Assembly (NCBI GenBank): GCA_000091205.1
Contig: AP006487.2
From: Cyanidioschyzon merolae
Lineage: Eukaryota
Direction: 5' to 3' (one strand)
Length of the DNA: 64,000 nucleotides
Shown here: piece after piece, positions 1-47,707 of the stretch
Position numbering within the stretch: position 1 is the stretch's first letter
Layout: every line of letters begins with the position of its first letter
Made by a program: the position numbers and the translations under genes
Notes under the pieces: generated by a model
Database searches by the model: none
Told to the model about the DNA's origin: nothing
Seen by the model: the letters and a program-made list of their open reading frames with translations, nothing else

Positions 1-886
1 GATTTTGCTCGGCTGCTTAAAAGCAGTGTCAATACTCAGTAATACCGAATCACGGAACACCATTATCGTACCCCAACTGCACATGAAAAGCCTTCCCTGT
101 GTATGTGAAGCGCACGAATCATGCTGGATTGCTGCCGCGTGTCACACTAGTGCCATATCTCTTGGAAACGGATTCTTTCCATCGACATTCTTCAACGTTT
201 CAGCACAACGCATGCACTGAGAACTAAACGATGCCCTCGCATGTTTGCCAGAAACAAAACTGCTAGAGGCTTCTGGTGCACGAGACATTTCCGGATTTCG
301 ACCGAGGCGCTCGACTCTCGGTGCGGGAGTGCTTGTGTGCATTGTTGCGGGTGGAATCACGAAATCGTTGGCCGCTCACCTTTGACTGCGCCGCCATCGT
401 ACGAGCGGTCATCTTAATCTGCACCATCTCGTGCATCCGGCTCTGCTTCATACTCTTCGTCTCTGCCAGTTTCAACGCGCACCAGTGCTCGTGATGCATC
501 TATGTCGTCCTGAACGCATCGATCGGAGTCGAACACGACCGATGCCTGGTCTCGTTGTACGATCTCGTCGAGTGAGCAGGAATGTCGCGATTGCGCGCTG
601 TGGAACGTCTAGCGCCACAGAGCACCAAAGAAACGACACGACTTGCAGTCATTTCATATTCCAGCTCATAAAAATGAATCGGGGAATGCACGTTTCTTGC
701 GTTCGCTGGACGGCAACCGCTGGCGGCCCCAGCGCGAGTCATTCGAAGACTCACGTGCTCGCCAAGCGCACAAAGCATTCCGCTTTGCTCACTATGGTGA
801 CCAGAGCAACGATACTGGTTTTGACGCGGTCATCCCAGTTGTTCGTATGCTTCCTGAGGTGCATCATGCCTGGCGCCGGGTCCAAC

Positions 887-1267
887 CTAGCTTTCGAAAA
901 GTTGAACGGATGCGTTCGCTTTCCGTTCGCGTTCTTCGACTGCGTCCTCTTGATTTAACGGGACGGCGACGGCCACGAAGCCCTTGAAACCGTGATAAAC
1001 GTTTATGACGACTTTTTTCTCTTTATATACCTTGAACGGCTGAAAATGAGTCTCGTTACCCGACACAGGCTTGGGTTTCAAAACAAAAGCTGGTTGATAT
1101 TCTCCATCGTCCTTCATCAGCTCTATGAGCCTCTGTCCATTCCGTCCCTGTAAACGGGGAATCTTCAGCAATATCCGCCAGTGCTCGTCGCAAACTTTTG
1201 CCCATGCTTTGTACTTGCTCACGAAGGACAACTCTTTCTTCTTCTCCTCTACTTGACCTGTTGGCAT
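887..1267 (-). CDS. Hypothetical small basic protein of 126 aa from the first ATG. It has a weak, unverified resemblance to the SRP9/SRP14 Alu-binding fold
   Basis: The ORF 887..1279 has its first ATG at 1267 (MPTGQVEEKKKELSF...). It is lysine-rich and matches no diagnostic motif. The start was chosen because the track's upstream start is GTG. Confidence 0.25.
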   Translation of the reverse strand: MPTGQVEEKKKELSFVSKYKAWAKVCDEHWRILLKIPRLQGRNGQRLIELMKDDGEYQPAFVLKPKPVSGNETHFQPFKVYKEKKVVINVYHGFKGFVAVAVPLNQEDAVEERERKANASVQLFES

Positions 1268-4200
1268 GCATGTGGTCACTATGCTCTATACCAGTCTTTT
1301 CTTCCAAGGGATCTAGACGCGCGAGGTGGATACCATGACAGGAACTCGCCCAACTTATTTATGTAAGAGTCGACTACACTTCAAGTACCTTTGGGCACCG
1401 TCTCCTCCGTGAGCAAGCCCATGTAAAGGAGCCGTCGCTCTGCTCCATCCAGCGGACGAGCAGAGAAGCAACAGTCATCCGGGGCTGGTTTGAGTTCGAG
1501 AACGACTGGTTGGAGAACAGATTCACATATACGAGACAAGCAACTAGTGATTCTTATGTGTGGAAGTGACTTATGGAAACGGAGACGACGCCTTCGACAG
1601 ACTGAACCATTCGAACGGGTTGGTAAGCAGAGCAACTCAACGCCGATTTCAACCGCGTGTTCCTCGACTGCTTCTGAGTGACGGATAGCGGCTCTGTCCA
1701 AGAGCAGGAGAAGGGAATTGCCGAACGAGATGCTCCAAGCATTGCGTCTCACGAAGCATGGGGTTTCAATGACCCTGTCCGTTTTACGAGCCGTTGGCGA
1801 CTCTACAAATGAATACCTATACGCGTTACGAATCTCGGAATGCTCGATTGTCTCTTCTCTATGACCAGTGATTTGCCCTTCTTGGAGATGCCATATACAC
1901 GTCCACTATTCTTCCTGAATAGGGTCTCACCGAATGAGACGAATACCCGCCTCTCGTGTAGTGAGCGTTCGTATTCCAGTGCGAGATCGATCGGGTGTGT
2001 GTTGTGAGGCACGCGACGGTCTCGCCTAGAAGTGTGCGTTCCTCTTTGTTCGTCCGTGTTTCTTCGTCACCGTTCGTATCAGCAGTATGGAAAGTTCATG
2101 TTGCGTGGGTTGTTTGATAGCCTTTCATGGACGACATAGAGGGTGGAAAAGATTGACGGGGCTAGGTTCGAGCTGATAGCGTTTGATCGACTTTGGTCTG
2201 GACGCACAACGTTCCGAATATTGTCTACGAGACGGGTGATTCGTCCACTTGCTGACCGTTGAATGACTGACTCAAAGTATGGTCGTTCTTCGCAGACTAA
2301 AATTCACAGCATCAAATCTTTCCGTGATGTTTCTCCAACCCACAAAACGCAATATGTTTGAGTACCTATGGAGCAAACAACCAAAAGGCAAAACAGTGCG
2401 TGCTGGTGCATGTGTGCCGAAAAATTCACTGCTCAGCCTGATACTGCGCTCTCGGCCAGGCACACGGACTGCAGCGCTCGATGACTCCGGCCTTTGGAAG
2501 ACGATGCGTATCACATGCAGACGACGCTGAGCATTTCGCGAACTGCTGCCCGCATGGGTCCTTTTCTAGTGGAACAGTTCATTTTCGAGCATGGCGAATA
2601 TAGCAGTTTTCTCTCTGAAAAAGTATCATGGCTTTTATGTCTATGATACAGCGGAACTGACCGACATCTGCGTCGCGGCTTAAATAAAACTGATTCAACG
2701 CTACTGTTGTTCCTGAAAAAGGCAACGCTACACCTACCTGCATTTTTTGTTTTCTTAGCGCCCGTGCGCGCCTGTATCCTCCATCTGAGCAACTGAGGCG
2801 GCGACCCTGTCCCGCGCGCGCAGGACTCGCCCGGTCTTACTCTAGAGCAGTTGCGCTTTCCAGTGCTACCACAAAAGCAGCACAACGGAGCGAAGGACAG
2901 CTGGCCGCTCTTCATTCTCTTATGCTACAACTCCTTCGTCCTCTCGATCGATTCGGATGCCGTGAGTCGGAAAATCAATTTGCAAATTCGTTGCCCGAGG
3001 GCGCCGCAAACTCTGCCCCTCGAGTGAGTCGAACACCGATGCTGTGAAACGTTACGTCCTCAACCGTTCTCCATGGGCACGCGCGCGGTTCGAACCAGCG
3101 TCTGGCGCGTTTGCTCGCGATGCCCGTTCTCCAGTAGGGCCAGCATTAGAAGACGCCACGACTAGACGGGCTCCAGACTCAAGCTTCTTGAGCGCTTACA
3201 TAAAGCCAGCGTGCACAGAGGCTCCGAGAAGCGTTGGCATCTCTCCATGGCGTTTGCGACGACGCATCCGGCCGTGCAGTAAGCGCCTGCGATCGTTCGG
3301 CGCATGGAGCATCTCCGGATTCATCATGCCAAGTTTCGAAGTCGAATGCTGCGCTGGATATCCCGAAGCGTCGAAGCATCCGTGGACTGACTGAGGCCTC
3401 TTCTCTTCCTCTTGAGATCGTCCACGAATACTGAACAGTATAGTTGTATCCGTCATTCCAACTAAGTCATGAGATGGATATTGCGCACCAGGAAAATAAG
3501 GGAAAAGTGCTCGTGGTCTACGCAACCAGCATACTGGAGTTGGGGTGCAGACGAAGCCCGCGGGCAGTATCTTTACAAACAGCACGGCGAACCAGCGACA
3601 TCCTTCCGAACGAATGAGCGCGGGTGCTTGTACACCACGGCGATGTTGAACGCTCTGCGCCCTGTTACAGACCCGCACCTGTTTCATGGAAGAGTACCTG
3701 GATCATACTCCTACTCACGCATGATTTTACGTATGTAGGATGTAACCTTATTTACACGAACAACGGGATACCGACTAAGCGATGATTATCTACATTTAGG
3801 AAAACCTTCCGCAGTTCGCACGAGATCTCCGAGGTCCACCTGCAACCAACATCCGCACCCCCATTCGAAGATCATAGCAGAATCAAGCTACCCTCCGGGT
3901 GTCGAGCTTGCCATAACCATCCTATAGGCTTTAAGCTCAATTGTATTCCATCTCCAGGTGAATGGAATCCGACGCTTTTTCGCGGTTTCTAGCAGAAGTG
4001 TTCGACGTGCGTCTATGATCAAAGAAAAAACTCCACGAGAGAGGCAAGGACATGGAAGCCGGGCATCATGGGAGGCCTTGATCGCCAGCTGCCGGACAAG
4101 GAAAGAGACATGCCCTTCTTGCCGACTATCGAGCGAAGAAGAGCAAGTAACGAAGAAGCACAGGGCAGGCAGGAATGCGTCTGCTGTTCATCGCGAAACA

Positions 4201-8582: not shown

Positions 8583-9122
8583 AAGCTGTCCGGTCGAGAT
8601 ACGCTCTATTGAAAGAATCGGATCGCTGGAGTTTCTGAAGGAGCCGCGCACCCGCGCCCATCAATGGAGCTCAACCAGCTACCGCGACGTACTGGAGGTG
8701 CCGCGAGCCTTCGCTTCGGCGAGAATACACGCTTCATCATGAAACTGAGACGAGATCATCGTTATCCGGGCTCATTCAAGGCGCGAAATTTCGCAAGTCC
8801 GCTGCTTGGGATTTTCCGCAACGAGAGCGCATTGTCGCTCGTGGAGGCACTCGCATGGCCGCAGCGGAACCTAGCGCGAACCCGTTGCAACCGGACATCT
8901 AAATTGTCCAGCTAGGGGAAACTTTGTTTCAAGGTTGATGAAGCTTGAAGAACCGAAGAAGACACGATGCTGAGACCCCGAATATCCTGCTGTTTTCGAC
9001 CATGCAGCGGAGCCCGGATAGGGTCATCGGCGCTTCTTGCTAATCTTTTGGCAACCACTGATGCCATGCACTGAAAGCGAATGCCAATTGTGGTTCAACG
9101 CTACGCCAATGTGTCAGATTAA

Positions 9123-10262
9123 CATGGAACACTGAACTGCATGATCTGTGGCTGCATTTCGATTTTTTACGAAGCTTTTTAAGATGTCTAGCCTCGATAT
9201 CCGGAGTGCAGTGATGCGGGCTCACGGTTCCATGCATAGATTCAGGATTCTCGGTAGTGTTTTCGGAGTGACTCCCTCCGCTCTTTGAAGCTGGAATTCG
9301 GTACTTTATCGGAATTAAGATGATTCGTGACGCCATCGATCAGCGGTTCATAGAATAACAGATGCCAATATCGAGTCTATACGTACGAGCGTCCACGCTT
9401 CCCCTTTCGTTACGTGTAGCGTGCCCAGGTCACGCATGCTTCAAGTCTTCGATCGCTCGGTTTCACGGCAACTCATGGGCGCAGCGATCCGTGCCGTTCA
9501 ACAGACGATGTGGAAGATTCGCCTTAGTCAGTTGACGACCTGTTCAGAAGCTCATGCCGGGAGTTCCCTGGACTTTTCGCACCAAATGATGAAAGGACTG
9601 TTCGGAAAACGAATCCTATGCTCTCTGTGGATATCCACGCAGAGGCATCCCATTGCAGCACGATACCTCCCGCATGATACGCTCCATGCGGCTCCACAGT
9701 CTTCCGTCTACATCGGAAGGGGTCTTGGAGTCGGGCTCGAGCCATTGCTGCGATCGTTTCGAATAGTGCATATGTCACCGGAGTGCACTAGCGGAGCGTT
9801 GAAGGATAGAAACTTCTCGTCCTCTTCTCTGTCCTGGATTCTCCTAGTGGTACTTGTTTCATCATGGTCGACATCGCGTTCCACAAAGACTCGATCGAAC
9901 GTGACGCAGAGCGCTTTCGAGTGCAGCGTCCAGACTGCTCGCTGAGGGCATCGACCCAAAGAAACCCGTGATCATCGGATACGACACGAGGCGCAGAAAC
10001 AAAGCATGGCATCAAGGCGAGCCACCTGTACCCGGACTGGGCATGTACCGAGCGTTACAGCAAGTGCTCAAGCGCCGCAGTAAAGTCCCCATAGGAGGAG
10101 TCTGGGTATTATTTCGTAACACTTGACCGCAGCCAAGTGTTACCGGCGCGAAGGGCTCGCCGCAGCTGTGGAGAAGTAAGATGAGCATGGCAAGCGAACC
10201 GTTGATCGCCCTTGCATCTTTGCACGGAATACGTCGATGACAGCCTGAGGCAGTGAAATCGG
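9123..10262 (-). mobile_element. Copy A of a 1.14 kb dispersed repeat, forming an inverted-repeat pair with 19126..20265
   Basis: ORFs 9421..9945(+), 9524..9778(-), 9788..10015(-) and 9040..9336(-) are essentially identical at the protein level to ORFs in 19372..20389 on the opposite strand. Boundaries were mapped to the points where nucleotide similarity ends: ...cagtgaaatcg at 10251-10261 and ...ttccatttta. Confidence 0.75.
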
Positions 10263-11781: not shown

Positions 11782-12842
11782 TGAGTGCGGAAGTTGCTTC
11801 ACCGGAGCAACATTGTAATGGACTGGTCTGTTCACCGGTTCGGGCAACTAGGCAGGCACATGTCTGAAACTTGCCTTCACACTTTCGAAAAAGTCACAGA
11901 TTCTGCGGAAATATGCAGCGCATTTTTTCGGCAGGAACTCCTGGTTACTTTGCATCTACTCGCATTGTATGAGTATTTCTGAAAAATTCCCTATGTAGCT
12001 ATCTTTGATGGCGAAAAGCCTCGTATCGTTACCCCGCTCTGTTGGAATTACACACGAGGAGACTGCCTGTACGGCACCGCAGAAGAATGCTGTCAGCTGC
12101 GTTAAGCTTGGCAGCATGTGCTGATTCCGGACTCTGCAAAGACAACTGTACACCCTATCGGAGCTCTTACGCACTTTTTTTGCGAAATCTGGTAAATCTT
12201 GGAGGATGCATCGTCTTCTACACGCGAAGACGGTCCAGCTCTCTCCAGTGTCAAGCACTTTCCCCTCAAAAAACGCTGGACTCGACAGAGGCTCTAAAAA
12301 TGAACTCTGCACCTATCAATACTGAGTGTAGTGAGCGGCGGATGTCTTCCCTGGTGCACCCAAGGTGTGAGCGACGTAATACGTGGGCGTCTCATACAGA
12401 AACGAAGCCTGCTCTGGTCACGTTGGGCGCACAGGCTCTAGCTCGGGTAGTCACGCTTGTAAATAAACTCTTGGCTCAATGATGGGTCAAGTTTGCGAGA
12501 CTCATAGCCCTGTGCTCCGCGGCTCTGCCAAACGATGTTTCCAGGCGCTCAACACAGCTGCAAGCGTCGTCCCGAGCTGCGGGAAAGCACACTGTTTAAG
12601 AACTCTGTCCGAGGCGACCTCGTGCTCGCTATAAAGCCGTTCTGCAGTTCCCAATGCATCCAGCAGATCCCGTGCATAGAAAGACTAGCACTCATGCCTC
12701 AATCCGTAGCCAAGTGCAGCCCTGCGGCATTTTGAAGGACATATGAGCACTGTAGAATACGTGCAAGTTTCCGGTTCCGTAGGTTGTCTTTGCGGGCCAT
12801 GCCTATGATTTTTCCAGTTCAGTGGAAAAGAATATCCCAAGA

Positions 12843-15148
12843 TCATATACGGTAAATTAGTCCGCACCCGCATACTCTTACCCGCCTTTCTCGACCTGAC
12901 CCTTCAATCGGTTTCAGGTGCTCGCTGTATACTTCGATTTTGAGAGGTTGCCAAACGATGATGGCTCGTGTCAGCTGCTCGGGTCTCTTCTCCGGCACTG
13001 CGCATCTCCTGATATACATAGCGGCATTAAAGTCTCGGTTCGCACACTCCACACCTTTCTCGCCTCTGTTTCTACTTACGAATGCGACTAGTCCTCGAAC
13101 TTTCGCCCTCCTTTCCATTCGCTCTTCCGTCAGCGGTCCGTACTTTTCCATATCCTCAGAGCGTCAATGGCACTTTTCCATCTCGTCCCTCTGGAGCGGA
13201 CACCCCAACTCGTATTGTATGCATGAAGTTCGGAACTTATCTACATGTATCGTAACAAAACGCCGTGCGTACTCCTTGTACGCTCGTGGCGACGGAGCGG
13301 GCGTACACTCCTTTTGTTTTGGCGCCCAGCGCTCTGCTTCACACGCTGTTACGAGCCTTTGACTATCGTCTTCCTTGAGGGCGCCCAACTGGTTGGAAAA
13401 GCTCGCGAATAGACACTGCTCCCCACAGTACAAGTTCGTGTGGTGACGAGCCCACCAAGCCGGTACTTTGGAAACCCCTTGCACAGATCCTCGTAATGAG
13501 CAACGCGAATTTTCACGAGCTCCCGAAAATCTCGAAAGTCCGCTCCGCGGATACGCACCTGGCTGATCGCTTCCAGCTCTTCCTTGACTCCTGCATTCCA
13601 TGTCTCAATTTTCTTCCTGGCATTCATTATACCGGATTCTCGGTCATAGCTCGCTCTCGCGAACTCCAAAAGTCGCGTGTCTTTCTCGCATAAGTTGCCG
13701 TCAATACCATCTTCCCCAGGCTTGGGTACTGCGATGATTATGGTATTCGTATTTCCGCGGTCCGTGCCAACGACACGGTCGTTCTCCTGCACCGCCGGCG
13801 TCGCAGGATCCGCCTTCTTCTTTCCTTCATGCTCCGTCACGGGTGACAACGAAGATGGAACCGGGCGATCCGTCCTCAGGCGCCGTCAGTGAACACCTAT
13901 GGATACCCTATCGGTTTCGACGATCCCCGCGGATACCCCTCGCATGCTCGTTTTGAGACGCTTCAGATCGAGGATATTCTTCCAATACGTTTCCCGGCTC
14001 TCGCCGATGAATTCCTTGTTGCTTACACAGAACTCTAGACTGATCTTCCTCATGATCCAGTAGAGGACGCTGGAGTTGATGGTCACGAAATCCGACTTGA
14101 TCCCGCAAATCCAAACAACGTTGAAGCGCTTCTCTCGTAGGAAAGCCTTCCGTTTGTCCGACTCTCGATTTTTTAGGGCCGGCGCCATATCGGCCTTGCG
14201 TTCGCGCTCTCGGTTCAGGAACACGAAATAACGCAGGATGAGGGAATCGCACCTTTTCCATCCTTTTTCATATCTGATATCTTTTCCGCTGGGTTGACAA
14301 GCCCTAAGACCGCACGGTGCTCTTGCATAGCCGCACGGGCCACGGAAGCTTCATTCATACTCCGGTTTGAAGTCTCCTCGTGGACGAATTCGATCTCCCG
14401 TTCACTCCTGCTGTCGTTCGTGATGCCATCGATGCTGGCCCGTCTGCCTCTGCGAGAGATACCCGGGTAGAGTGCAAAGACGGCGCGTATCATGAAGCGT
14501 TTGAGGCTCATTATGAAATGGTTCTTCAGGTTCGTGAGGTACTTTTCACCCCGTATGTGTAGATATCCGCGCCGTCCCTGTGCCGAGTACCGTTGAAGCG
14601 GTATTCCTTGTGATTTTCGTGGAGGACATGCACTCGCTCATTTCTCCTCGGCGTTTCCCCTGTGCCAACCATCAGGAGGCGAATAAAGGTCCTGTTGATA
14701 AACTCTGCCGGAACCTCGACTCTTCGAATTTCCGTCACGTTGTCGTACATCTTCGACAATGCATCAGTCCTGAAGAAGCCTTTATAATACTCATAGCGTA
14801 AGACGCGACACGTTTTTTTTTGATGACCTCATGCGTTATTTGCTTTAGGGATCCTTGCTGCGGCGTAGAAGAAGGGCTTTGGCTCCTATCTCGTCGTACT
14901 GTCGACTTGCTCGCAGCTTTTGACGTCTGGCATCCTTCTTTCGCTTCTTCGTCCTGTCGTGTTCCTCTTTGCTTGGCACTGCGTTCCGTTTTTCGTCGGA
15001 AACCGCGACACCAGGCCCTCAGCATCATCGACTTGCAGCCCCATATCTTTCCTTTAGATTTTTCTTTCTTCACAATCAACGCACTTCGAACGTGCCTGCT
15101 GTAAACCACGATAAAGAATTTGATTACAACCATCTGCGCGTAGAACAC
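12843..15148 (-). mobile_element. TnpB/Fanzor-like RNA-guided-nuclease gene, about 2.3 kb. It is frame-disrupted, by frameshifts or introns, so it is either a pseudogene or an intron-containing gene
   Basis: Collinear minus-strand ORF fragments span the region: 14735..15148, 14526..14759, 14215..14511, 13886..14224, 13349..13849, 13164..13601 and 12843..13151. Diagnostic motifs appear in the canonical order. RuvC-I is VVGTDRGNTNTIIIAV. The RuvC-II glutamate lies in RVAHYEDLCKGF. The pre-Zn block is YKEYARRFVTIHVDKFRTSCIQYELGCP, which fits the L.YKAE..G..V..VD..YTS..C pattern. RuvC-III is ECANRDFNAAMYIRRCAV, which fits ..DRDVNAAINI.. At least three frame changes occur between the fragments. 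Confidence 0.6.
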
Positions 15149-15247
15149 GGTTGACTTGGAAAACTATCAGGTTCCGGGTAGTCGCTTCGCGCACGGCAGT
15201 GGCAAACGCTCGTCTGCGATTTGCGAGCTCTGCAGACTCGTTTTGAC

Positions 15248-16027
15248 ATGACTCGGGGTGTATCGATTACTGTTCGGAACCCAAATACTCTGGATAACAC
15301 ACGCTGGATTGTTCGGCATCGCGGAAAGAAGAGCGTGAAGCGTTCGCGCGCTGCACGTTTTCTCTCAAAGTCAGGACCCTACCTGCACTCGAACGACAGC
15401 AAGAAAGCTGAGCAAAAGCTTGTCTTTAGCTGTTCTCACAGTCAATCGCCCGAAAAAGATTTATCGCTGCCATTTCCAGCTCGGTCGGAGGAAGCCTCAG
15501 CACCGCTTTGCAGCGCTAGAGGTTCCCCTGGGACTACGTACCCTGAACGTCGCTTTCCTGGGCTGCTACCCACAGAGAATAGCCAGAGCTTGGGTACGGT
15601 TACCGCAGTGAAGCAGCTGCTTCGGAAGCTTATAAAGTTCCAAGCACGCCTCGCTCGAGACCAAAGCCGGAAGCTGCGAGCACATAAACGATACGTATGC
15701 GGCATTCGCGAATGCACTCGTTTGTTGCGCGCGAAACAGTGTTTGCTACTTATTGTGCCCTCGAATGGAATACTGCCATGTGCGGCAGCCAATCTTCAAG
15801 AAACGCTCGCTCTAGCAGAAGAGCACTCTGTGCCCATAATCAGAGATATTTCGGCAACTGAGTTATGCCGACTTCTGCGTCGAGTTCAAGCTAGTCGCTT
15901 GAACGCTCGCCCCGCGTGCTGTGTTGGCGTGAAGAGTTGCGAAGGTGCATCGCTCGAAATGCAGAGAGTGTTTGATGCCCTAGCTTTACAGGCTGGAAAC
16001 ATTTACCCAACGGCCGCATCTGAATAG
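15248..16027 (+). CDS. L7Ae/L30e-family RNA-binding domain protein, SBP2/NHP2-like
   Basis: The C-terminal half, [27 protein letters not shown]...LQETLALAEEHSVPIIRDISATELCRLL...ACCVGV, fits the L7Ae fold consensus (K.R.V.G.RE..K.L.....IISPN......L.....A.E..VP......LG......V). The first ATG is at 15248; the track start at 15221 is TTG. Confidence 0.5.
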   Translation: MTRGVSITVRNPNTLDNTRWIVRHRGKKSVKRSRAARFLSKSGPYLHSNDSKKAEQKLVFSCSHSQSPEKDLSLPFPARSEEASAPLCSARGSPGTTYPERRFPGLLPTENSQSLGTVTAVKQLLRKLIKFQARLARDQSRKLRAHKRYVCGIRECTRLLRAKQCLLLIVPSNGILPCAAANLQETLALAEEHSVPIIRDISATELCRLLRRVQASRLNARPACCVGVKSCEGASLEMQRVFDALALQAGNIYPTAASE

Positions 16028-16071
16028 ATCCCTGAATGAAGCCTCGGACCTTTTCTTTGTGGTTAGCACGG

Positions 16072-17055
16072 CTACCCGGTCGTTTCTTTGTTTTGCCCTG
16101 AAACGGCTTGCTCTCTTTTCCGTAGCTCTTCCTCCGCCTCTTGAGCTTTTCGTGCTAGCTCGTCGGCAATGCGCGCGCGCTCCCGTGCCTCCAGTTCTTT
16201 GAACATAACCTCTGCTTGGGTGAGCTTCTCCATACTCATTTGATATGTTCCAATATCCTGATCGAGCCGTGCGTACGAGATTTTGAGCATATTGGCCCAT
16301 TTTTTCACAGATTCGAGATTGATTTCCACTCCACATGAACTCATGATTTTCATCAAACCTATACCAAATAACCGTGTGTAGTAATATTCACCATCTGCCC
16401 GACGACATGCGCGGAGCGCTGCGATGACTGGTTGCGCTTCGGCACTGTCTTCCCCGGTATCTCGCTCGATCTCCTCTATGAGCTCTGCCTCTGTCTTGCC
16501 CTGCACATATGCCAAAGCGTCGTCAGCTTCCTTGGTGACTTGGCCCACGTCAAGATCCAGCGCATCGCAAATGCACCGGAAGAGGCTCTCTCGCTCGTCC
16601 GGTCGCGGATACGAGCGGAAAAAATCGCGATATACGGATACAAAACCGAGCGCGAAGATGACGTCGTATCGAAACATGGCACAAACGAGCGCGAGATGAG
16701 CAGTTGTCAGAATCTCGTCCACAGCCTGCTGGTAATAGAATACCACAGGACGTTTTAGATTCCGATAGAAACGGGTCACGGTCTCGCTGACGGTGCGCAC
16801 AGGTTTTCCTCGAAAAGGTGCGAACTTTCTAGCAAAGTCTGTGTCAGCTGGCTCTGTGATGAGACCGAGAGCTTCTATGTCTTTTCTGAACTCATCTAAA
16901 CCCGCGAAGCGCGGTTCATCGCCAGTGCCCGCACAGAGCACTTGCCGACTTGTCCGAGAACCCTTCGCGTGAATACCAGCACCCCGCAAACCCGACTTGG
17001 AGAGCTTCCCATAAGCACTCCTGGGTAAACTAAAGCTAAAGGCTGCAGTGAACAT
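16072..17055 (-). CDS. THF1: Thylakoid formation 1 / Psb29 plastid protein (THF1) with an N-terminal transit-peptide-like extension
   Basis: The block PVVFYYQQAVDEILTTAHLALVCAMFRYDVIFALGFVSVYRDFFRSYP matches the THF1 signature (Arabidopsis ...YRYDPVFALGFVTVYDQLMEGYP). There is a coiled-coil acidic C-terminus. The first ATG at 17055 gives MFTAAFSFSLPRSAYGKLSKSG..., which is Ser/Thr/basic and has Phe near the N-terminus. The track start at 17166 is GTG. Confidence 0.85.
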   Translation of the reverse strand: MFTAAFSFSLPRSAYGKLSKSGLRGAGIHAKGSRTSRQVLCAGTGDEPRFAGLDEFRKDIEALGLITEPADTDFARKFAPFRGKPVRTVSETVTRFYRNLKRPVVFYYQQAVDEILTTAHLALVCAMFRYDVIFALGFVSVYRDFFRSYPRPDERESLFRCICDALDLDVGQVTKEADDALAYVQGKTEAELIEEIERDTGEDSAEAQPVIAALRACRRADGEYYYTRLFGIGLMKIMSSCGVEINLESVKKWANMLKISYARLDQDIGTYQMSMEKLTQAEVMFKELEARERARIADELARKAQEAEEELRKREQAVSGQNKETTG

Positions 17056-22783: not shown

Positions 22784-23159
22784 CTTTTCGAAAGGCACAA
22801 ATTATCTTCCTCCCCGAGGTGCAGCCGCACCGTCCATCACCAGGACGTACACACTCTCACCAGTGAACTCGGATTGAATGGTCCAGAGGATTGGCGGCGG
22901 ATGGCGGCCGCCGCACGGCTACTTCGCCGCGGCAGTCCGCCGCCGCACATGCTTGGAGTCGCTCGCGCGCCATGGCCGAATCGCATTCAGCTGAACTCTG
23001 TTCCTCTCCTTTTTAGAGAAGGAAATTGAAATCGATATGCAATGCATCCTATGGATCGGAGACGAATTGCCCCTAGGATGTATGTTTCACCGAATAGTGC
23101 AGGGATGATTGTATTTCTCTTTCAGGGCAATCATAATATAATTATCAGGTAGTTAAGGA

Positions 23160-24500
23160 ACACTGGAAGAAAGAAAAAGATGCGCTGCCCGCCAAAAACC
23201 GATATTCTCAAACCGTGTTTGTGGGCAATGGTAGAAAAGGACCCGTTGAGCACTTTACGGAAAGCAAAGAGCGACGATAGTTGCCACCACGGGCGTCTCT
23301 GTTTCCCAACAGCTTGTTCGCTTGGTCCTGAAACCCCTAGGATACAGTCGCGAAAAAAGAGTCCTGGTTCACGCACGGCCATCTTCCATCTAAATCGCAA
23401 TAACAGCGTTCCTGAAACTCGGGGATCGGTATGCAGTACAGAGACGTTGATTTGTATTTTCAGTCGATGAGACTTGCCTCGGACCAAACGTTGGTACATA
23501 TTTGAGTATTCGCGGAGAGGGAGCCCGTTGTATGTACGATCGCTCTCGACGAGAACGAGGGCATCATCTATTCTAGCTGCGGTGGATTCATTTGGCGGCC
23601 GCCGTTTTGCTGGCACAGAGGGCTCGCACAACAGGACCAACCACTTTGTCCAACCATTGAAGACTCTTCCCTGCCGTCTGGCGACGTTCCCCTATCGGAA
23701 ATCGTGGGGTATAACCATTCCCCTGGGGTTCGAGTTTTCGAAGAATCTTTCGGGGTAGAGCTGTTTTTCATTCCTCCACACGCTCCAGGGTTGAAGCCCA
23801 TCTATGGAGTGTTTTCTATCGTGAAACGTTATGATCGCCTCACCGAGCGCATCGCTGCAGCTTTCTGTACACGGTGATACAGCGGCACATTCCGTCCTTC
23901 TTCTGCAAGTGCCTCTCACTCCGGAAAGATCCTCATCTAAGCGAATAAAGGAGAACGTTCATTTGATGAAATAAAAAATCCGAGGGAAAGGTACGGTCAT
24001 ATAAGTCAAGGATCCTGGAGGTACATGTCGTCGGCTGACAAAAGAAAATGAAAAATCCTCTTCTCGCCGACCATCGAGCGAAGAAGAAGAGGGGAGATAG
24101 ACCAGGAAAGGTGTTTGCCCTGCGGGACAAAAACTAGACTGTAGGGTCACTGACGGCACGAGTTCTAGGACTCCCTGAACAGCTAAATCCCATCAAAAGC
24201 AACAAATGCATATCGTTCTTGAACGGAGACTTCAACGACGCCATCAATATCAGACGATGTGCAGTGCTGAATACGAGGCCTGCGGAGCTGACTCGACCGA
24301 ATGTTCTGGGGCAACCTCTCAGGCTCGAAGTCTACAGAGAGAAGCTGAAGCCGATGGCAGGGCGCCTTTCGGGAAAGGCTGTGAGGCGTCTGCGAGTGGG
24401 TTACATAAATAGAAATATATGCTCTATAGTAGCGAACGGTTTTCCGTTTTGCTCTATATATAGGTTCGATTTGAAACACATTCTCAGCAGGGCGTAGCCT
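23160..24500 (+). mobile_element. Internally deleted, non-autonomous derivative of the Fanzor/TnpB-like element. It retains the C-terminal region including the RuvC-III motif
   Basis: The plus-strand frames show three blocks: KKKMRCPPKTDILKPCLWAMVEKDPLSTL (23180..23470), YSRRGSPLYVRSLS...AAVDSFGG (23474..23758) and GDFNDAINIRRCAV...LKPMAGRLS (24219..24497, TTG start). Together these are homologous to 51904..53010(-) and to the RuvC-III/C-terminus of 12843..15148(-). The RuvC-I and RuvC-II segments are absent. Confidence 0.5.
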
Positions 24501-28167: not shown

Positions 28168-30390
28168 CTCTGAGTACCTGGCTTCGTGAAGGCGAGCTAG
28201 ATCTCACTAAAAATGATTCAGATGCAAATATTCTGGCCAGGCGCGGAGGTTCGAGTTTCGACTCTGGAACCATCGACAGCCGCCAACGAATCCTGCTTCT
28301 AAAGTGCTACGTTCACACCCAGTTCGCAGTCAGCGTGTAACAGCCCGCCTCCGATAATTCGGTCGTAAAAACTAATGTTTGGGAATGCTCCCGCTGTCGA
28401 AAAAATCAGCCTTTGCGGTCCTTTTCTCCAAGGGCTGCCTTTTCCTCTCTCGTAGCCGCAGCTTTAAATATTTCGGTCTCCCGTGACCCTCCAGCTCCCG
28501 TTTCAGAACTCTAGAAATGTTGATGGCGGCGTTAAAATCCCGTGTTCGCAGCTTCTGGTAGTTGTCGTCGCGTTTGGTGCACAGGCGGATGTTGCGATCT
28601 ACGCCTCGCTTGCCTTTTTTTCATCTTTGTGTACGGCCAAGGAGCGTCCTCTGCAGCGGTGGCACCTGGCTTTTGTACGGTGTTCCTATATGTGCAACGC
28701 GCCTTCCCCAATGAGGTTCACACTGTAGCCTGTGAACGCTCGCTTCAGCGCTCGATCCATGCCCTAGACGGTCGCAGAGCGATCCTGTCGATACATCCAT
28801 CGATTTTAGAGCCCGCTGTCGTATCCCGCTATCATGGAAGTCTTGTACGTGAGCCACTTAGCGAGTACTCTCCGTTCTGCAGACGCAACCGCATGGCGTT
28901 CCATTCGGTAGAGCATTTGCGGAGCGCGATATTGCTGATGATGAAACAAAAATCGGAAAGAAAATCATGGATAGAGAACAAGTCAGGAAGTGTTTATCCG
29001 TCAATGCTCCATTCGCGCAAAGCGGTGACGTACACTCGACTACAAGCGATCGCAATGATGAATCAAGTCCGAGTCCAAGAAAATTCTCCATGTAAGAAGA
29101 GGAGTCGGGAGCCTTTGAGAGCATATCCCGCCAGAGATATCTCGCTGCTGCCGAACGCGGTTTCTTCGATGTCTGCAAAGATTGGAGAATTTGCTTTTCA
29201 AACTGAAGGGATTAACTGTGTTGAGAAATTCAGCGTAGTTTCAGCATGAGTTCGTGAAAAAGTTGCCAAAGGGCGACGTCGATATTTATTTATCGCCGAT
29301 CCACTGGCGCGAATTTGTACGGCCACAAGTAGACTTACAACAGGGAGATCGAGTACTTGAAGAATGCATGGTTTCAGCATTCTAAACAGGAAAAAAGGGG
29401 AAGAACGGAGGCTTCTGCGTATGAACTGGTAAATGATATAGGTAATTTGACGTAATCATGTTCATCGGCGTCGTTATTCAACTTAAAGACAGTGACGTAA
29501 CAAATTCCGGCTCCAAAATGTCGAAAAGGTCACTCCCTAAAGACGACCGAGAATCCTAAAACGAAGCGTGAATCTGTAAGCTTTTGCTGCCGCACTTCAA
29601 ATGCCGACGCTGCACGCCTAACAAAGTTCCATTAAAATCCAAAGATGGTAACAGAGCTAGCGGTTCAGTGCCCCATATTAATCTTTTGCGGATGCAGAGG
29701 CTGCGGTGCGGAGTCGGCCATAGGTAGCTCGCAGCCGCTTTCGCGACATATCCGTATATGGGCCTCGTCGCTGCAATTTCCGGCGCCATGCAGGAGGATA
29801 TCTGCGTTTGCGTGCGGTTCGACGACACTTTGTCTTCGACTGAGGGTCTGGGCCTGTGTCTCGAGCAGGTAAGCAGTGTGGACTCCAGCAAATGGAGTCA
29901 GGGACATCATGGATGTTCCGAGGTCCATGCATCTCATTCGGAAATTCATGTCCGGAGCCGGCTGCCGTAATAGGCATATGCCGCAATGATGATTTCCTCT
30001 GACTTGGCTATCGAAAGATGTCTCGGGGCATCGAAATTCTACAGAGTCCGTCTAGAGTATCTATTTCTGTGCGTGGAGACACAACAGCACGAATAGGCAA
30101 TGCTATGATATTGTGGCTCTTATCACACGAGCGAGCAAGATGATGCGAATCATGTGCGATCATTGCGAGTCCACTTTCCAGTGGCGAAGAAAGAGCCAGA
30201 GCGAAGGCAACTTATGCCGTTTGTTGAACCGCGAGAGGTAAGACGGTTCCCGGGCACGGAGGCGAGCTGATCGTGTTGTAACCGCCCCAGCTAAACTTCC
30301 ATCAAGAAACCTTTCCCGCAAACTTCACGACAAGTAAACTCGTAGCTCGTCCATGTACCTAGAAAGGAGACTTCTCTGGTTAGGAGCGCT

Positions 30391-35763: not shown

Positions 35764-37036
35764 TTAGAATAAAATGGAATGGGCCCACTTACCTTATTCT
35801 GGCGTGTAATCAAACTCTCTTGGTCTCTTCCAGTTGTGATCAACAACGGACTTTTCGGAGCCTCCTCAGCAACTGCTTCCTTTTCGTACCTCTTATCTCT
35901 TCCATTGAAAACACCAGCATCTCGTTTCCTCAAGCTCCGCTATTCACTGGCAAAGGGTGACGACGGCAGCGTGAGCGTCCTCATTTCGCAGCCTCCAGTT
36001 GTTTTCCCGTGCATTTCATGCGCAGGCGGTAGTTGCCATCTCCGCACCCCTAGCCATGAGCATCTTCTTCTCATACTGCCACGATGTGCCCTGTGCAGCG
36101 ATGGCGCTCGGCAGGGGTCGCATGACCCTGTGCGCTCACCCCACCCCTCTTTCGAGGATCGTCCTGTAGCGCGTGAAGGCTTCTTCCATCGTTCGTCACG
36201 TGTCCTTGACATGTAAACAGGGTTCCATGCGATGTCTTTCTCCGTTACAACGCGCCCGGCGCCGTTCCCGAATATCACGAGCTTCTTCTGGACGATCCTC
36301 ACCGCAAACACACCGTACGCACACACGTAGGAGTACGCTGTTCCGTTCGGTGGAGGATTTGTGGAGCGCTTCGTAGTTCACGGTGAAACAAGCACCAGAA
36401 GTCAAAAGCAGTCTGCAGAGCAAGTGGAGATATTTCGAGCCGTCTGCGCTCCCTTCGAGCAATGGAGTGACGCACTCTTTATCAGAGGCGATCGCTGCGA
36501 TGACTCGAGTCCGAGTCCAGGGCCATATCCCATCCTGGCAGAAGAGACGGGATCTTCCAGGGGCACGTCCCGTAAAGCATACCATGCCGCTGTAGAATGC
36601 CGTCTCGTCGGTGGCCGCAAAGAGACGGGGATCTGTCTCGCGGGTGGAATCGAAGATTAACTGGTATGAGAAATTCTGTGTTCTCGCAGAAGAAGCTTGT
36701 GATGGAGTCGCTATGCGGTGACGTCGAGGTTGTTTCTCGTAATCGATCCAGTGGCGCAGCGCGCTGCGTTCTCGAGTTGCACTGGGACAGATAAATCGAA
36801 CGTCTGCTGGCTGCTTGCATTCAGCCTGATACACGTAGGAGAGAGAGAAGAGCAGGGCATCGACGTGTGAATGGACAATAATATAGGTTGCTTTACGAAC
36901 GGTATTCGCGGGCGTTGCGTTCCATCTTGATACCGGTGAACTAGGGAAGAAAGCGGAAAGGCGTCGAAGGTGACACTCCGAATAAACTACCGAGAACTCC
37001 AGAATTAGATGTATATCTGTAAGCACTTTCTGTAGT
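35764..37036 (-). mobile_element. Copy 1 of a ~1.36 kb repeat family, called R1 here. It is slightly truncated at one end relative to copy 3
   Basis: The 353 aa ORF 36196..37257 is identical to ORFs 40595..41512 and 46783..47700 from residue ~73 onward (EVLQKVLTDIHLILEFSVVYSECHL...). Antisense ORFs 35779..36216, 35940..36326, 36361..36660 and 36383..36595 are also duplicated. The end is TTAGAATAAAATGGAATGGG at 35764. Confidence 0.75.
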
Positions 37037-39201
37037 ACTTCGAGTTTAGAGTCTTTGCATCCTAAACAAATTCTAAAAGAATCGAAAAGCTGGAACACAG
37101 CAGACAGTTCACTGTTTGATATCCTTATCTGACATGGGTATGAAATCAGAGGGAGGGCGACTGCCAGTGATGACGTTCTTGTTGTTTGCCAGCAACGCAT
37201 ATCCGTGCGGGGTACGGTGTAACGCAAGTCCAAGTTCTTGTGAAATTTATGATGCAAAACGCCAGCCGATCTGAGTTTTCAGGGTTTCAGTGTGTCCGCC
37301 ATGGTTTGTAAAGCTGTATCGATGGATGCATACCAAATGAGCCGTAAATCACGTGCGTGAAGAACTGGAGCATGCCGACAGTCTGGGCCGGGCGCTCCAG
37401 GCATTCTTGCACGGACGTTTTGGACGAATTCCAACCGCTGCTTTGTTGATGTTGACTATTCGTTGTTTTAAGGAGTCTCGTAATCGTCTTTTGGTATCGC
37501 GGCTGAACGCTCAGAGGTGCACTCTAGTATAGTGATCGGTCTTGCGAATGAAAGCCGCTGCGCGTTACGCGCAAAAACCATTAACTGGCGAGCAAATGCG
37601 CTCTAACAGCGGTCTCAAGTGCGATGCCTCGTATTCAATGGTAGCGACTAGGCACCCGAAGCAAATCTACAGTCTCGAAAGGGACATACGACAACCAGAC
37701 TTTGAGTCGTAGAACACGCGAGATATTCGATCGGCTTCTGAACGTTTCTGGGCAGGGGGCTCGCCAGTTCCTTAAGAGAACTGCTAGCATGCGGCGTATT
37801 CCGTGGAAATAACGGCCCTCGTTATCGGGGCGCCATTGATGCTTCAACTTGCAATCGAATAGAAGATATCTGTCCTGCTGTACACACACAGGCCAGCGAC
37901 CATTTATTTGAAATATGAATCCCTGCACTTCACGCTCCTTCGTCACTCGCGCGATTTTGTCTGCACCCTATCACAGGGTTTTCACATTCGAAATGTAGGC
38001 TAGCCCCATCTGGGTGCCACTCGGGCGCTTATTCATCTCTGAATCAACCCCTGACTTTCTTCGACTTCTTGCACTGTGGAGAGCTCATGCACGGACATCG
38101 GTGGGGCACTGGTGCAGAACCACTATATGAATTCCGGCTTCTCAGCATACAGACTCTGGCCAGCATCTCGTATGCGCTGCCTGACCATATTTTCAACGAA
38201 GGCAACGCGATCGCTGTGCATTGACGTTCAGAATCCAGGACCTCACTGGCGACGCTTATGCTCGCAACTACCGCGCTGCTGCTAAGCCTCCTGCGCAAGC
38301 ATAGTATCGACCTCAATGCCGCAGTCGCTACGTCACCAGTCCGTGCCGGTAGCGGCCTGACGCGCGTTGCTCGCCACCGCCAAACCTCTCCGTCAAGCAA
38401 TTTGGCCCTTTTCTGATACGGAGCTTGTTTAGCGCTTCCACGGGGACAGGGCGCGATCGTACAGCCAGAGCGTGTACTCTTCCAGGGACAACTGCGCCCC
38501 CTCTTTCCAAACTGCAGTGTGCTTTTCTGACCATCTCATGCGTCTCCTATCGAATCTGCTCTTTCATCTCATCATCAAGAAAATTCGCGGTCAAAGTCAC
38601 CGGAAAAAGAGAAAACTCGCACTGGAGCTACCGCTCCATATCCTAGTTCGGTTGCAATACAAGAGTAGAGGAACCTCGAGATATTTTCCTAAGCGGCGCG
38701 CGTTCCCTGCCACCACTGGCTGCAAGGCGGAGATTCTGGGGGCCTCGAGTTGCGTGGCGCGCGGGTGTGGCAACTGGTGGTTTACGTCTCCGTTAAGCGC
38801 TTATCTGACATAGCACTGCGTCGTGCTTCCCTTGTGTGTTCCTGGCGCGTGGAACAACGAACAGGGGACCAGCATAATGATTCAGGGAAAGAATTAGACG
38901 GAATTAGGACGACACTCAGGGAGGCACCCGCTGGTGCTTCGTTCAAGAGGCTTTGACACCTTTGAACGTTCAGAAGGCAGCTAGAACACTCCAGGCGCAA
39001 CCAGCATTGCTACCGCCTCGGGCGGCTGCGCCCCTTGTGTTGTGTGCTCTTAGTGAAGGTGCCTTTTTAGCTGGGCATCTGCTTTCCAAGATTGGCTTTC
39101 CTGACGGAAAACGCTGGCAGTGAAGGCTGAGGGAGCGTTTTCCTACGTGATTTGACACACAAACAGGTATACTATTGTTCACGCACAGTCTATACTCAAA
39201 T

Positions 39202-40497: not shown

Positions 40498-40586
40498 CAT
40501 TGATGTATTCTCTGACCATTGCGAATATAACCATGCTAGCCTCCTGATCAAGCAACAGTCATTCTGTACACTCAAGTCAAATTAAA

Positions 40587-41885
40587 ATGGAACAGTGAAC
40601 TGCTCGCTTTCATCTTGCCATTCGATCCTTTTTCTGGAACTTTTGACATTGACCAACTCGGCGTTCGAAGTGCTACAGAAAGTGCTTACAGATATACATC
40701 TAATTCTGGAGTTCTCGGTAGTATATTCGGAGTGTCACCTTCGACGCCTTTCCGCTTTCTTCCCTAGTTCACCGGTATCAAGATGGAACGCAACGCCCGC
40801 GAATACCGTTCGTAAAGCAACCTATATTATTGTCCATTCACACGTCGATGCCCTGCTCTTCTCTCTCTCCTACGTGTATCAGGCTGAATGCAAGCAGCCA
40901 GCAGACGTTCGATTTATCTGTCCCAGTGCAACTCGAGAACGCAGCGCGCTGCGCCACTGGATCGATTACGAGAAACAACCTCGACGTCACCGCATAGCGA
41001 CTCCATCACACGCTTCTTCTGCGAGAACACAGAATTTCTCATACCAGTTAATCTTCGATTCCACCCGCGAGACAGATCCCCGTCTCTTTGCGGCCACCGA
41101 CGAGACGGCATTCTACAGCGGCATGGTATGCTTTACGGGACGTGCCCCTGGAAGATCCCGTCTCTTCTGCCAGGATGGGATATGGCCCTGGACTCGGACT
41201 CGAGTCATCGCAGCGATCGCCTCTGATAAAGAGTGCGTCACTCCATTGCTCGAAGGGAGCGCAGACGGCTCGAAATATCTCCACTTGCTCTGCAGACTGC
41301 TTTTGACTTCTGGTGCTTGTTTCACCGTGAACTACGAAGCGCTCCACAAATCCTCCACCGAACGGAACAGCGTACTCCTACGTGTGTGCGTACGGTGTGT
41401 TTGCGGTGAGGATCGTCCAGAAGAAGCTCGTGATATTCGGGAACGGCGCCGGGCGCGTTGTAACGGAGAAAGACATCGCATGGAACCCTGTTTACATGTC
41501 AAGGACACGTGACGAACGATGGAAGAAGCCTTCACGCGCTACAGGACGATCCTCGAAAGAGGGGTTGGGTGAGCGCACAGGGTCATGCGACCCCTGCCGA
41601 GCGCCATCGCTGCACAGGGCACATCGTGGCAGTATGAGAAGAAGATGCTCATGGCTAGGGGTGCGGAGATGGCAACTACCGCCTGCGCATGAAATGCACG
41701 GGAAAACAACTGGAGGCTGCGAAATGAGGACGCTCACGCTGCCGTCGTCACCCTTTGCCAGTGAATAGCGGAGCTTGAGGAAACGAGATGCTGGTGTTTT
41801 CAATGGAAGAGATAAGAGGTACGAAAAGGAAGCAGTTGCTGAGGAGGCTCCGAAAAGTCCGTTGTTGATCACAACTGGAAGAGAC
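40587..41885 (+). mobile_element. Copy 2 of the ~1.36 kb R1 repeat. It carries an intact 305 aa ORF and lacks the terminal ~58 bp at its right end
   Basis: It starts ...AAATGGAACAGTGAACTGCTCGC at 40587, an end shared exactly with copy 3 at 47707. ORF 40595..41512 is 305 aa with only 1-2 aa differences from copies 1 and 3. Similarity to the other copies stops after ...ggaagagac at about 41885. Confidence 0.75.
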
Positions 41886-41967
41886 AAAAACAGAAAAAAG
41901 TAGGCCAAGTAAGGTCTATTGAGCTGCTCGATTTTATTTCGACGTGGGCGTGGTGCGTGCGCACGAG

Positions 41968-46350: not shown

Positions 46351-47707
46351 TTAGAATAAAATGGAATGGGTCCACTTACCTTATTCTGGCATGTAATCAA
46401 ACTCTCTTGGTCTCTTCCAGTTGTGATCAACAACGGACTTTTCGGAGCCTCCTCAGCAACTGCTTCCTTTTCGTACCTCTTATCTCTTCCATTGAAAACA
46501 CCAGCATCTCGTTTCCTCAAGCTCCGCTATTCACTGGCAAAGGGTGACGACGGCAGCGTGAGCGTCCTCATTTCGCAGCCTCCAGTTGTTTTCCCGTGCA
46601 TTTCATGCGCAGGCGGTAGTTGCCATCTCCGCACCCCTAGCCATGAGCATCTTCTTCTCATACTGCCACGATGTGCCCTGTGCAGCGATGGCGCTCGGCA
46701 GGGGTCGCATGACCCTGTGCGCTCACCCCACCCCTCTTTCGAGGATCGTCCTGTAGCGCGTGAAGGCTTCTTCCATCGTTCGTCACGTGTCCTTGACATG
46801 TAAACAGGGTTCCATGCGATGTCTTTCTCCGTTACAACGCGCCCGGCGCCGTTCCCGAATATCACGAGCTTCTTCTGGACGATCCTCACCGCAAACACAC
46901 CGTACGCACACACGTAGGAGTACGCTGTTCCGTTCGGTGGAGGATTTGTGGAGCGCTTCGTAGTTCACGGTGAAACAAGCACCAGAAGTCAAAAGCAGTC
47001 TGCAGAGCAAGTGGAGATATTTCGAGCCGTCTGCGCTCCCTTCGAGCAATGGAGTGACGCACTCTTTATCAGAGGCGATCGCTGCGATGACTCGAGTCCG
47101 AGTCCAGGGCCATATCCCATCCTGGCAGAAGAGACGGGATCTTCCAGGGGCACGTCCCGTAAAGCATACCATGCCGCTGTAGAATGCCGTCTCGTCGGTG
47201 GCCGCAAAGAGACGGGGATCTGTCTCGCGGGTGGAATCGAAGATTAACTGGTATGAGAAATTCTGTGTTCTCGCAGAAGAAGCTTGTGATGGAGTCGCTA
47301 TGCGGTGACGTCGAGGTTGTTTCTCGTAATCGATCCAGTGGCGCAGCGCGCTGCGTTCTCGAGTTGCACTGGGACAGAAAAATCGAACGTCTGCTGGCTG
47401 CTTGCATTCAGCCTGATACACGTAGGAGAGAGAGAAGAGCAGGGCATCGACGTGTGAATGGACAATAATATAGGTTGCTTTACGAACGGTATTCGCGGGC
47501 GTTGCGTTCCATCTTGATACCGGTGAACTAGGGAAGAAAGCGGAAAGGCGTCGAAGGTGACACTCCGAATAAACTACCGAGAACTCCAGAATTAGATGTA
47601 TATCTGTAAGCACTTTCTGTAGCACTTCGAACGCCGAGTTGGTCAATGTCAAAAGTTCCAGAAAAAGGATCGAATGGCAAGATGAAAGCGAGCAGTTCAC
47701 TGTTCCA
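46351..47707 (-). mobile_element. Copy 3 of the ~1.36 kb R1 repeat, taken as the apparently full-length reference copy
   Basis: The plus strand begins TTAGAATAAAATGGAATGGG (46351) and ends ...GAGCAGTTCACTGTTCCATTT (47707). These termini form an imperfect inverted repeat, TAAAATGGAA / TTCCATTTTA. ORF 46783..47700 (305 aa) and the antisense ORFs are identical to those in copies 1 and 2. Confidence 0.75.

Follow-up and report, generated by a model that had tools for sequence, protein, structure and literature searches.

A truncated, decaying copy of the CMe-1A Fanzor1 transposon in Cyanidioschyzon merolae

Is the broken, Fanzor-like reading frame on one 64-kb stretch of the Cyanidioschyzon merolae genome (contig AP006487.2) a nuclease gene whose frame is restored by splicing, or the remains of one? 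Throughout, "the window" means this whole 64-kb stretch; all coordinates are positions within it, and the locus under study ("copy 1") lies on the minus strand. An initial annotation, made from the sequence alone, had recognized seven collinear open reading frame (ORF) fragments with TnpB/Fanzor-like RuvC motifs, had offered both pseudogene decay and spliceosomal introns, which many eukaryotic Fanzor genes contain, as explanations for the frame changes, and had proposed the locus as a candidate programmable nuclease. Recognition of a Fanzor/TnpB-like gene remnant with a broken frame was borne out by alignment to a published consensus, by a family hidden Markov model (HMM), and by a profile that reaches the solved Fanzor1 structures, and of the two explanations decay proved to be the correct one, given the indels, the stops and a neutral substitution pattern. 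A programmable nuclease locus was not upheld in view of multiple frameshifts, two clear stops and the mutation of five of eight invariant residues. We conclude, with a probability of roughly 96%, that the locus is an old, neutrally decaying copy of the transposon CMe-1A, truncated at both its 5' and 3' ends and belonging to a family already described in 2013.

Identity and ends of the copy

CMe-1A is the sole Fanzor1 family listed for C. merolae by Bao & Jurka (2013, Mobile DNA 4:12, PMC3627910), who report an element of 3169 bp, present in about 150 copies at about 80% identity to the consensus, with a 734-aa protein encoded by one exon, listed as "734 (1)". No terminal inverted repeats (TIRs) or transposase were reported, target site duplications (TSDs) could not be determined, and intact copies are said by the same authors to be still present in the genome (PMC3627910). 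With the consensus sequences (DNA and protein) supplied in Additional files 2 and 3 of that paper, we found that window positions 15167-12870 on the minus strand correspond to consensus positions 787-3084, at 80.2% nucleotide identity over 2279 aligned columns and with 18 indels, every one of them 1-5 nt long. The copy is like CMe-1A in host, in an identity that fits the ~80% of the other copies, and in deriving from a single exon; it differs in lacking consensus positions 1-786 and 3085-3169, in its frameshifts and stops, and in the loss of the catalytic Glu. The missing 5' part includes the 635 bp resembling the non-autonomous element TE-N2_CMe and the missing 3' part is the last 85 bp, and neither terminus of a complete element (consensus positions 1 and 3169) is present. 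An ATG homologous to the CMe-1 start lies at 15044-15042 on the minus strand, the true coding remnant runs from there down to ~12870, and after frame correction its translation shares 63% identity with the full length of the 734-aa CMe-1 protein. Coordinates of these and other features are given in Table 1.

The substitution pattern of the copy is that of a sequence free of coding constraint. Mismatch rates at codon positions 1, 2, and 3 were 0.183, 0.181, and 0.218, respectively (chi-square p = 0.20), and codons with a single change comprised 83 synonymous vs. 175 non-synonymous cases. Substitutions (~20%) spread evenly over codon positions are what neutral decay since insertion would produce. 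Decay is the norm in the CMe-1A-related family, in which only 4 of 80 related metagenome copies retain an ORF of at least 650 aa. The locus itself matters little, being one of ~150 decayed copies of a family catalogued in 2013.

An omega-RNA had been expected in the ~350 bp downstream of the coding remnant, at 12500-12843. Identity to the consensus stops at position 3084, which corresponds to window position 12870, and the element extends no further downstream. The final 85 bp of the consensus matched nothing in the 64-kb window, a search of Rfam with positions 11800-15400 gave no match, and the flanks of the copy matched none of 86 related loci (0/86 for the flank at 15168-16100). Given where the match ends, the missing right end, the empty Rfam search, and the lack of flank conservation, 12500-12843 is plain flanking DNA, and the omega-RNA proposed there was rejected, with no right-end motif and no conservation in that interval. 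No omega/f-RNA at a right end was found for the window copy.

Complete right ends were recovered from related copies. In characterised Fanzors the RNA abuts the transposon right end (PMC10530073). Between 24 and 28 distinct metagenome copies end exactly as the CMe-1A consensus does, with two hairpins immediately before the end. One 5-bp right-end stem showed 10 GC-to-CG double changes, and the terminal stem occurs in two registers, either CGTTTTT..AAAGGCG or a perfect CGTTCGA-CTT-TCGAACG, depending on the subfamily. RNAalifold applied to the right end of 24 related copies returned one 5-bp hairpin only, the registers differing between the two subfamilies; with two registers of the terminal hairpin, simple covariation counting is not decisive. 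If the analogy with characterised Fanzors holds, the hairpins would mark where the guide scaffold finishes, and they are candidates for the 3' module of that RNA. In these related copies the 3' flank usually begins with TTTGTT or TTCGCT and the 5' flanks are T-rich, ending in a T-run, which suggests either a target preference or an element slightly longer than published.

These results bear on whether the remnant has been domesticated, either as a shorter protein (e.g., the 166-aa ORF at 13349-13849) or as a regulatory or guide-like RNA for intact CMe-1 copies. We consider this very unlikely: although some CMe-1A copies are intact (PMC3627910), so that a trans-acting protein may exist, and although Chlamydomonas has extra stand-alone copies of Fanzor RNA (PMC10530073), the substitution pattern here is neutral, the right end with its hairpins is missing from both the copy and the whole window, no Rfam family was matched, and the flanks are conserved in no related locus.

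Several details nevertheless weigh against describing the locus simply as a decayed CMe-1A copy truncated at both ends. The copy may represent a sister subfamily with another 3' end and not be strictly 3'-truncated: three copies in the window (copies 1-3) share a short similarity past consensus position 3084 that the published consensus lacks, and the last ~40 nt of the copy are closer to two window remnants linked to DDE-type transposase sequences than to that consensus. A possible third in-frame stop near 12929 is perhaps an alignment artefact, and small paired indels near the C-terminus are perhaps alignment noise. Finally, some transcript from the region may, formally, have a role at the RNA level.

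Lesions of the reading frame

When the homologous protein P0014 was compared with the window by tblastn, its residues 1-747 aligned over positions 14979-12966 in seven frame-hopping pieces, with no coding residues missing at the junctions between them. The peptides quoted initially, among them RVAHYEDLCKGF at 13472-13507 and YKEYARRFVTIHVDKFRTSCIQYELGCP at 13197-13280, are indeed present on the minus strand, and the fragments are collinear with a protein of ~734 aa. The family HMM matched four frame pieces of the copy at E = 1e-46, 5e-32, 3e-11, and 6e-9, far beyond chance. The frame is broken by at least six small frameshifts and two clear in-frame TGA stops, and no intact Fanzor1 ORF remains; the initial annotation had correctly noted frame switching, with a count ("at least three times") that was too low. 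Frameshifting indels occur at consensus positions 945 (-1), 1106 (-1), 1191-1194 (-4), 1408 (-1), 1695 (-1), and 2497 (+5), corresponding to window positions near 15005, 14845, 14758, 14545, and 14259, plus the 5-nt insertion at 13457-13461. When compared with 94 diverse members of the family, the window copy has substitutions at 5 of 8 invariant and 10 of 34 near-invariant positions.

Short duplications had also been proposed at the frame junctions. The pair "IVETDRV" and "QENDRVV" instead represents two distinct conserved motifs: the former is the xETDGV hairpin, and the latter leads into RuvC-I. Two TGGGCGCC sites do exist (13321 and 13380) but do not lie at a frame junction.

In principle, errors in sequencing or assembly could have made a functional Fanzor1 gene look broken, given that 1-nt indels are a common artefact and that four of the frameshifts are 1-nt deletions. 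We find this highly improbable: the neighboring host ORFs (557, 920, 1079, and 355 aa) are unbroken and agree exactly with proteins in the database, and errors of this kind would have to account for ~20% substitutions distributed evenly over codon positions, two nonsense changes, indels of 4 and 5 nt, and changes at five of eight invariant residues, the catalytic Glu among them. The C. merolae 10D genome is, moreover, said to be a finished Sanger assembly (attributed to Nozaki et al. 2007), which also counts against such errors. We give virtually no credence to an intact gene interrupted by spliceosomal introns, with splicing restoring a single frame, which is refuted by the alignment despite the 5-10 exons of CRe-1 to CRe-3 (PMC3627910 Additional file 1): no insertion relative to the single-exon consensus exceeds 5 nt, no intervening sequences separate the coding blocks, homologous residues run across every frame change, the two clear stops arose by substitution within conserved codons, CMe-1A has a single listed exon (PMC3627910), and C. 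merolae has only 27 introns genome-wide (PMC4829280, PMC5435867).

Fanzor1 membership and the rearranged active site

A search with the frame-corrected query recovered 96 homologous proteins, almost all from Joint Genome Institute (JGI) metagenomes, with E-values down to 2e-143, identities of up to 65% (59% for the best match), and query coverage of up to 98%. Full-length relatives are 699-752 aa long, and for some homologues PF26935 (DUF8286) is the sole Pfam annotation. Searching 1.84 billion representatives with a profile yielded 2040 clusters (at 50% identity) with E <= 1e-3. In an alignment (A2) of 94 diverse full-length family members, with residues numbered according to the intact relative P0088, the invariant positions included D383 (TDG), D421 and G423 (DPG), G559 (AYG), and E592 (DEF), and R658 and D659 (RD) were near-invariant. 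When the A2 profile was searched against all Protein Data Bank (PDB) sequences, only three proteins fell below E = 0.1, all of them Fanzor1: PpFz1 from Parasitella (PDB 9cf0, E = 2.7e-22), SpuFz1 from Spizellomyces (PDB 8gkh, E = 1.7e-16), and GtFz1 from Guillardia (PDB 9cer, E = 1.8e-9). The alignments match DPG to "IDPNKRD", DEF to "DEYKTS", and RD to "NRDM". Significance came only with the 94-sequence profile; a 31-sequence profile gave SpuFz1 alone, short of significance (E = 0.35), and a single-sequence phmmer search of PDB sequences gave no match.

An AlphaFold2 model of P0088 (predicted local distance difference test score 88.7, predicted template modeling score 0.86) was compared with known structures using Foldseek. 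The top seven matches were all Fanzor1 structures (E = 3e-18 to 4e-16, template modeling (TM) scores 0.54-0.73), those to SpuFz1 scoring 0.61-0.73, and Cas12o, Cas12b, Cas12f, and Fanzor2 were far weaker matches. The Fanzor1 fold (WED/REC/RuvC) was found in this way for the intact relative and not on the window pseudogene itself. Membership of the family in Fanzor1 is thus well supported by sequence and by predicted fold, and those who first defined the family place CMe-1 in Fanzor1 (PMC3627910).

Pfam and NCBIfam returned nothing relevant for the seven fragments, for a 459-aa frame-corrected concatenation, or for the intact relatives, and in particular the OrfB_Zn_ribbon profile (PF07282) had no match in the window fragments, the query or the relatives. 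The C4 zinc ribbon is strictly conserved according to the 2013 motif definition (PMC3627910), which places it between [TS][TS] and RD. The block that had been read as preceding a zinc finger is present and corresponds to the DEFRTS motif, but no C4 zinc finger follows it: between the alternative Glu and RuvC-III this feature is absent from the window copy, the CMe-1 consensus, and 93 of 94 relatives, the 93 having no two Cys pairs in that interval. Its absence is a clade-wide loss and not a lesion of the window copy, and the CMe-1-type Fanzor1 clade gives no Pfam TnpB match because it has lost the ribbon. With the ribbon gone clade-wide, membership rests on homology and fold, and the group is best called a zinc-ribbon-less Fanzor1 branch. 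Its Asp, alternative Glu, and Asp triad stays invariant, and the predicted fold still matches SpuFz1. An OrfB profile search of the concatenated translation, named initially as a means of refutation, gave no match, and taking that null at face value would have been misleading, because the homology shows only by family profile or fold comparison. More generally, Pfam TnpB profiles miss this clade entirely, and "no Pfam hit" would wrongly reject true Fanzors.

In Fanzors the canonical RuvC-II position is occupied by an inert Gly or Pro, and an alternative Glu ~45 residues downstream is used instead (Jiang et al., PMC10530073). The family equivalents of this rearranged site are AYG (G559) at the canonical position and VDEFRTS (E592) at the alternative one, the latter sought about 30-45 residues past the former. 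The RuvC-II Glu had been assigned to RVAHYEDL, which belongs to a long helix upstream and is not invariant; the true Glu site is VDEFRTS, and the RuvC-II glutamate of Fanzors should accordingly be sought at the rearranged position (DE[FY]xTS). A fully retained D/E/D triad had been claimed as well. Both Asp residues of Fanzor1, in RuvC-I and RuvC-III, are kept in the window copy, but Lys takes the place of the alternative Glu (VDKFRTS), a residue that 94 of 94 relatives retain. This Glu-to-Lys change is a lesion of the window copy, not a family feature. Upstream of RuvC-I, the window xETDGV motif aligns to "GSITTDGASVSV" of SpuFz1. Because of the frameshifts, the stops, the lost catalytic Glu, and the absence of both termini, the copy makes no nuclease and no guide RNA; it only occupies space between host genes.

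The dead copy carries Glu in place of Gly at the canonical RuvC-II position (ACEAE) while its alternative Glu has become Lys, which on paper "reverts" the Fanzor rearrangement. As the sequence evolves neutrally, we regard the Gly-to-Glu change as a coincidence, and the apparent reversal is almost certainly chance.

Directly upstream of RuvC-I, a 75-nt (25-aa) unit, e.g., "ATQEVQDNDLVVDA.KHEE.KEA", occurs in tandem one to six times among copies (consensus 2117-2196). It forms an in-frame variable-number repeat inside the Fanzor1 ORF, and the window has a single unit near 13780-13860 on the minus strand.

By homology, the ancestral element would have encoded a single-exon, 734-aa Fanzor1, presumably a RuvC endonuclease guided by RNA and belonging to the TnpB/Cas12 lineage, its "rearranged" active site consisting of the Asp in GxDPG, the alternative Glu in VDEFRTS, and the Asp in NRDFNAA. 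We infer from the solved Fanzor1 structures that intact CMe-1 members are RNA-guided nucleases. The CMe-1 clade resembles SpuFz1 (8GKH), PpFz1 (9CF0), and GtFz1 (9CER) in profile (E = 1e-9 to 1e-22) and in fold (TM up to 0.73, for the intact relative), and shares with them TDG, the DPG of RuvC-I, Gly at the canonical RuvC-II position, the alternative Glu in DE[FY]xTS, and RD in RuvC-III. Sequence identity, in contrast, is only 12-15%, and SpuFz1 keeps a C4 zinc ribbon (CPRC...CTNPNC) where the CMe-1 clade has lost it. SpuFz1, PpFz1, and GtFz1 are structurally and biochemically characterised, whereas CMe-1 is known here by sequence and by the predicted fold of an intact relative, and the window copy is dead. 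The clade has a RuvC nuclease core homologous to that of prokaryotic TnpB (IS200/IS605, IS607) and presumably works by the same RNA-guided mechanism; it differs in lacking any Pfam OrfB_IS605 or OrfB_Zn_ribbon match, in a CMe-1 protein roughly twice the size of TnpB, in its eukaryotic nuclear host, in the rearranged active site, and in having no TnpA.

Hot-spring metagenomes contain intact members of the family, including CMe-1A-like copies in sequence closely resembling Cyanidioschyzon; another intact member, P0088, lies in an element with a DDE_3 transposase. Intact members of the very large DUF8286 Fanzor1 clade could be active zinc-ribbon-less RNA-guided nucleases, a tentative idea that we hold to be possible but rather doubtful. 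If they are, some of these nucleases may come from thermo-acidophilic algae, with guide scaffolds that perhaps finish in the two right-end hairpins. For a thermo-acidophilic red-algal nuclease, the few intact CMe-1A copies or the DDE_3-linked 699-aa relatives would be a better source than the present locus.

Other remnants, repeats, and neighboring genes

Table 1. Features of the window discussed in the text. Consensus refers to CMe-1A.
Feature	Position	Strand	Basis or remark
Truncated, decayed CMe-1A Fanzor1 transposon copy	12870..15167	-	Local alignment to published consensus
Fanzor1 (CMe-1) coding remnant, pseudogene	12870..15044	-	Codon-wise alignment; tblastn with P0014 and P0088; family HMM
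Non-coding element part upstream of ORF (consensus 787-905)	15045..15167	-	Consensus alignment
Conserved xETDGV motif, GIVETDRVS here, near-invariant Gly to Arg	13901..13927	-	Upstream of RuvC-I
In-frame stop, consensus Tyr389 to TGA	13886..13888	-	Codon-wise alignment
RuvC-I VVGTDRGNTNT (consensus VVGADPGNTNI), catalytic Asp kept	13742..13774	-	D421 invariant in family
5-nt insertion, switch from frame 0 to frame 2 inside RuvC domain	13457..13461	-	Consensus alignment
Strand at canonical RuvC-II position LVTACEAERW (consensus LVVAYGAGRW), invariant Gly to Glu	13326..13355	-	Family alignment
HVDKFRTSC, alternative catalytic Glu (VDEFRTS) to Lys	13221..13247	-	E592 invariant; aligns to DEYKTS of SpuFz1
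In-frame stop, consensus Arg627 to TGA	13164..13166	-	Codon-wise alignment
RuvC-III ANRDFNAAMYI (consensus VNRDFNAAINI), catalytic Asp kept	13011..13043	-	Family alignment
Further Fanzor1 remnant	341-930	-	Family HMM
Further Fanzor1 remnant	24204-24311	+	Family HMM
Further Fanzor1 remnant	28414-28647	-	Family HMM
Further Fanzor1 remnant	43175-43873	-	Family HMM
Further Fanzor1 remnant	51967-52092	-	Family HMM
Decayed DDE_3 gene, then Fanzor1 C-terminal remnant	2298-279	-	tblastn; family HMM
Decayed DDE_3 gene, then Fanzor1 C-terminal remnant	23030-24400	+	tblastn; family HMM
Decayed DDE_3 gene, then Fanzor1 C-terminal remnant	46111-43145	-	tblastn; family HMM
Decayed DDE_3 gene, then Fanzor1 C-terminal remnant	53183-51877	-	tblastn; family HMM

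Four of the five further Fanzor1 remnants in the window lie directly downstream of, and in the same orientation as, pseudogenes of DDE_3 (Tc1/mariner/IS630-type) transposases. An intact metagenomic unit of ~3.6 kb has the same arrangement, with a 401-aa DDE_3 ORF followed by the 699-aa Fanzor1 P0088, and is bounded by ~30-nt imperfect inverted repeats (TATACTC...GGAACACC). This organization is like that of PUl-1-type, mariner/Tc1-borne Fanzor1 (Bao & Jurka 2013), both in P0088 directly downstream of its transposase and in the four window DDE_3 pseudogenes, each followed by a Fanzor1 C-terminal remnant. It differs in that no DDE_3 remnant lies beside the copy under study and in that CMe-1A was reported without TIRs, TSDs or transposase. 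This linkage suggests a Fanzor carrier of the Tc1/mariner type as the ancestor of CMe-1A, which had been reported as unclassified.

Two of the linked remnants, at 23015-24401 (plus strand) and 53198-51877 (minus strand), are ~70% identical to each other in nucleotide sequence and end where copy 1 does (consensus ~3084-3092), with a shared 3' stretch that is absent from the published consensus. The end common to the three remnants points to an older subfamily whose 3' end was different. The 5' ~630 bp of CMe-1A is also present as separate copies at 49156-48531 (minus strand, 82% identity) and 58119-58531 (plus strand, 66% identity), and such copies correspond to the non-autonomous TE-N2_CMe described by Bao & Jurka (PMC3627910).

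Four window ORFs matched C. merolae 10D proteins exactly: an isoleucine-tRNA ligase (BAM79277), CME052C (BAM79281), an M20 peptidase (BAM79282), and FtsH2 (BAM79284). The CME prefix of the neighboring gene places the locus on chromosome 5.

The Fanzor1 pseudogene and a Thf1-like gene lie between the two arms of a 1146-bp inverted duplication (9116-10261 and 20271-19126; 99.65% identity, ~9 kb apart). Four ORFs of equal length that might have formed a "174-aa ORF family" were rejected as such, since two are related as the 99.65% inverted duplicate and the other two are unrelated. Three 1.2-1.3-kb copies at 35764-37043, 40576-41888 (reverse), and 46351-47630 are 99.4-99.7% identical to one another and fall within 12 kb. 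They hold an ORF of ~305 aa with a DDE-transposase-like "ATDETAF" motif, and are either a young repeat or the product of recent segmental duplication; the surrounding stretch is rich in transposons.

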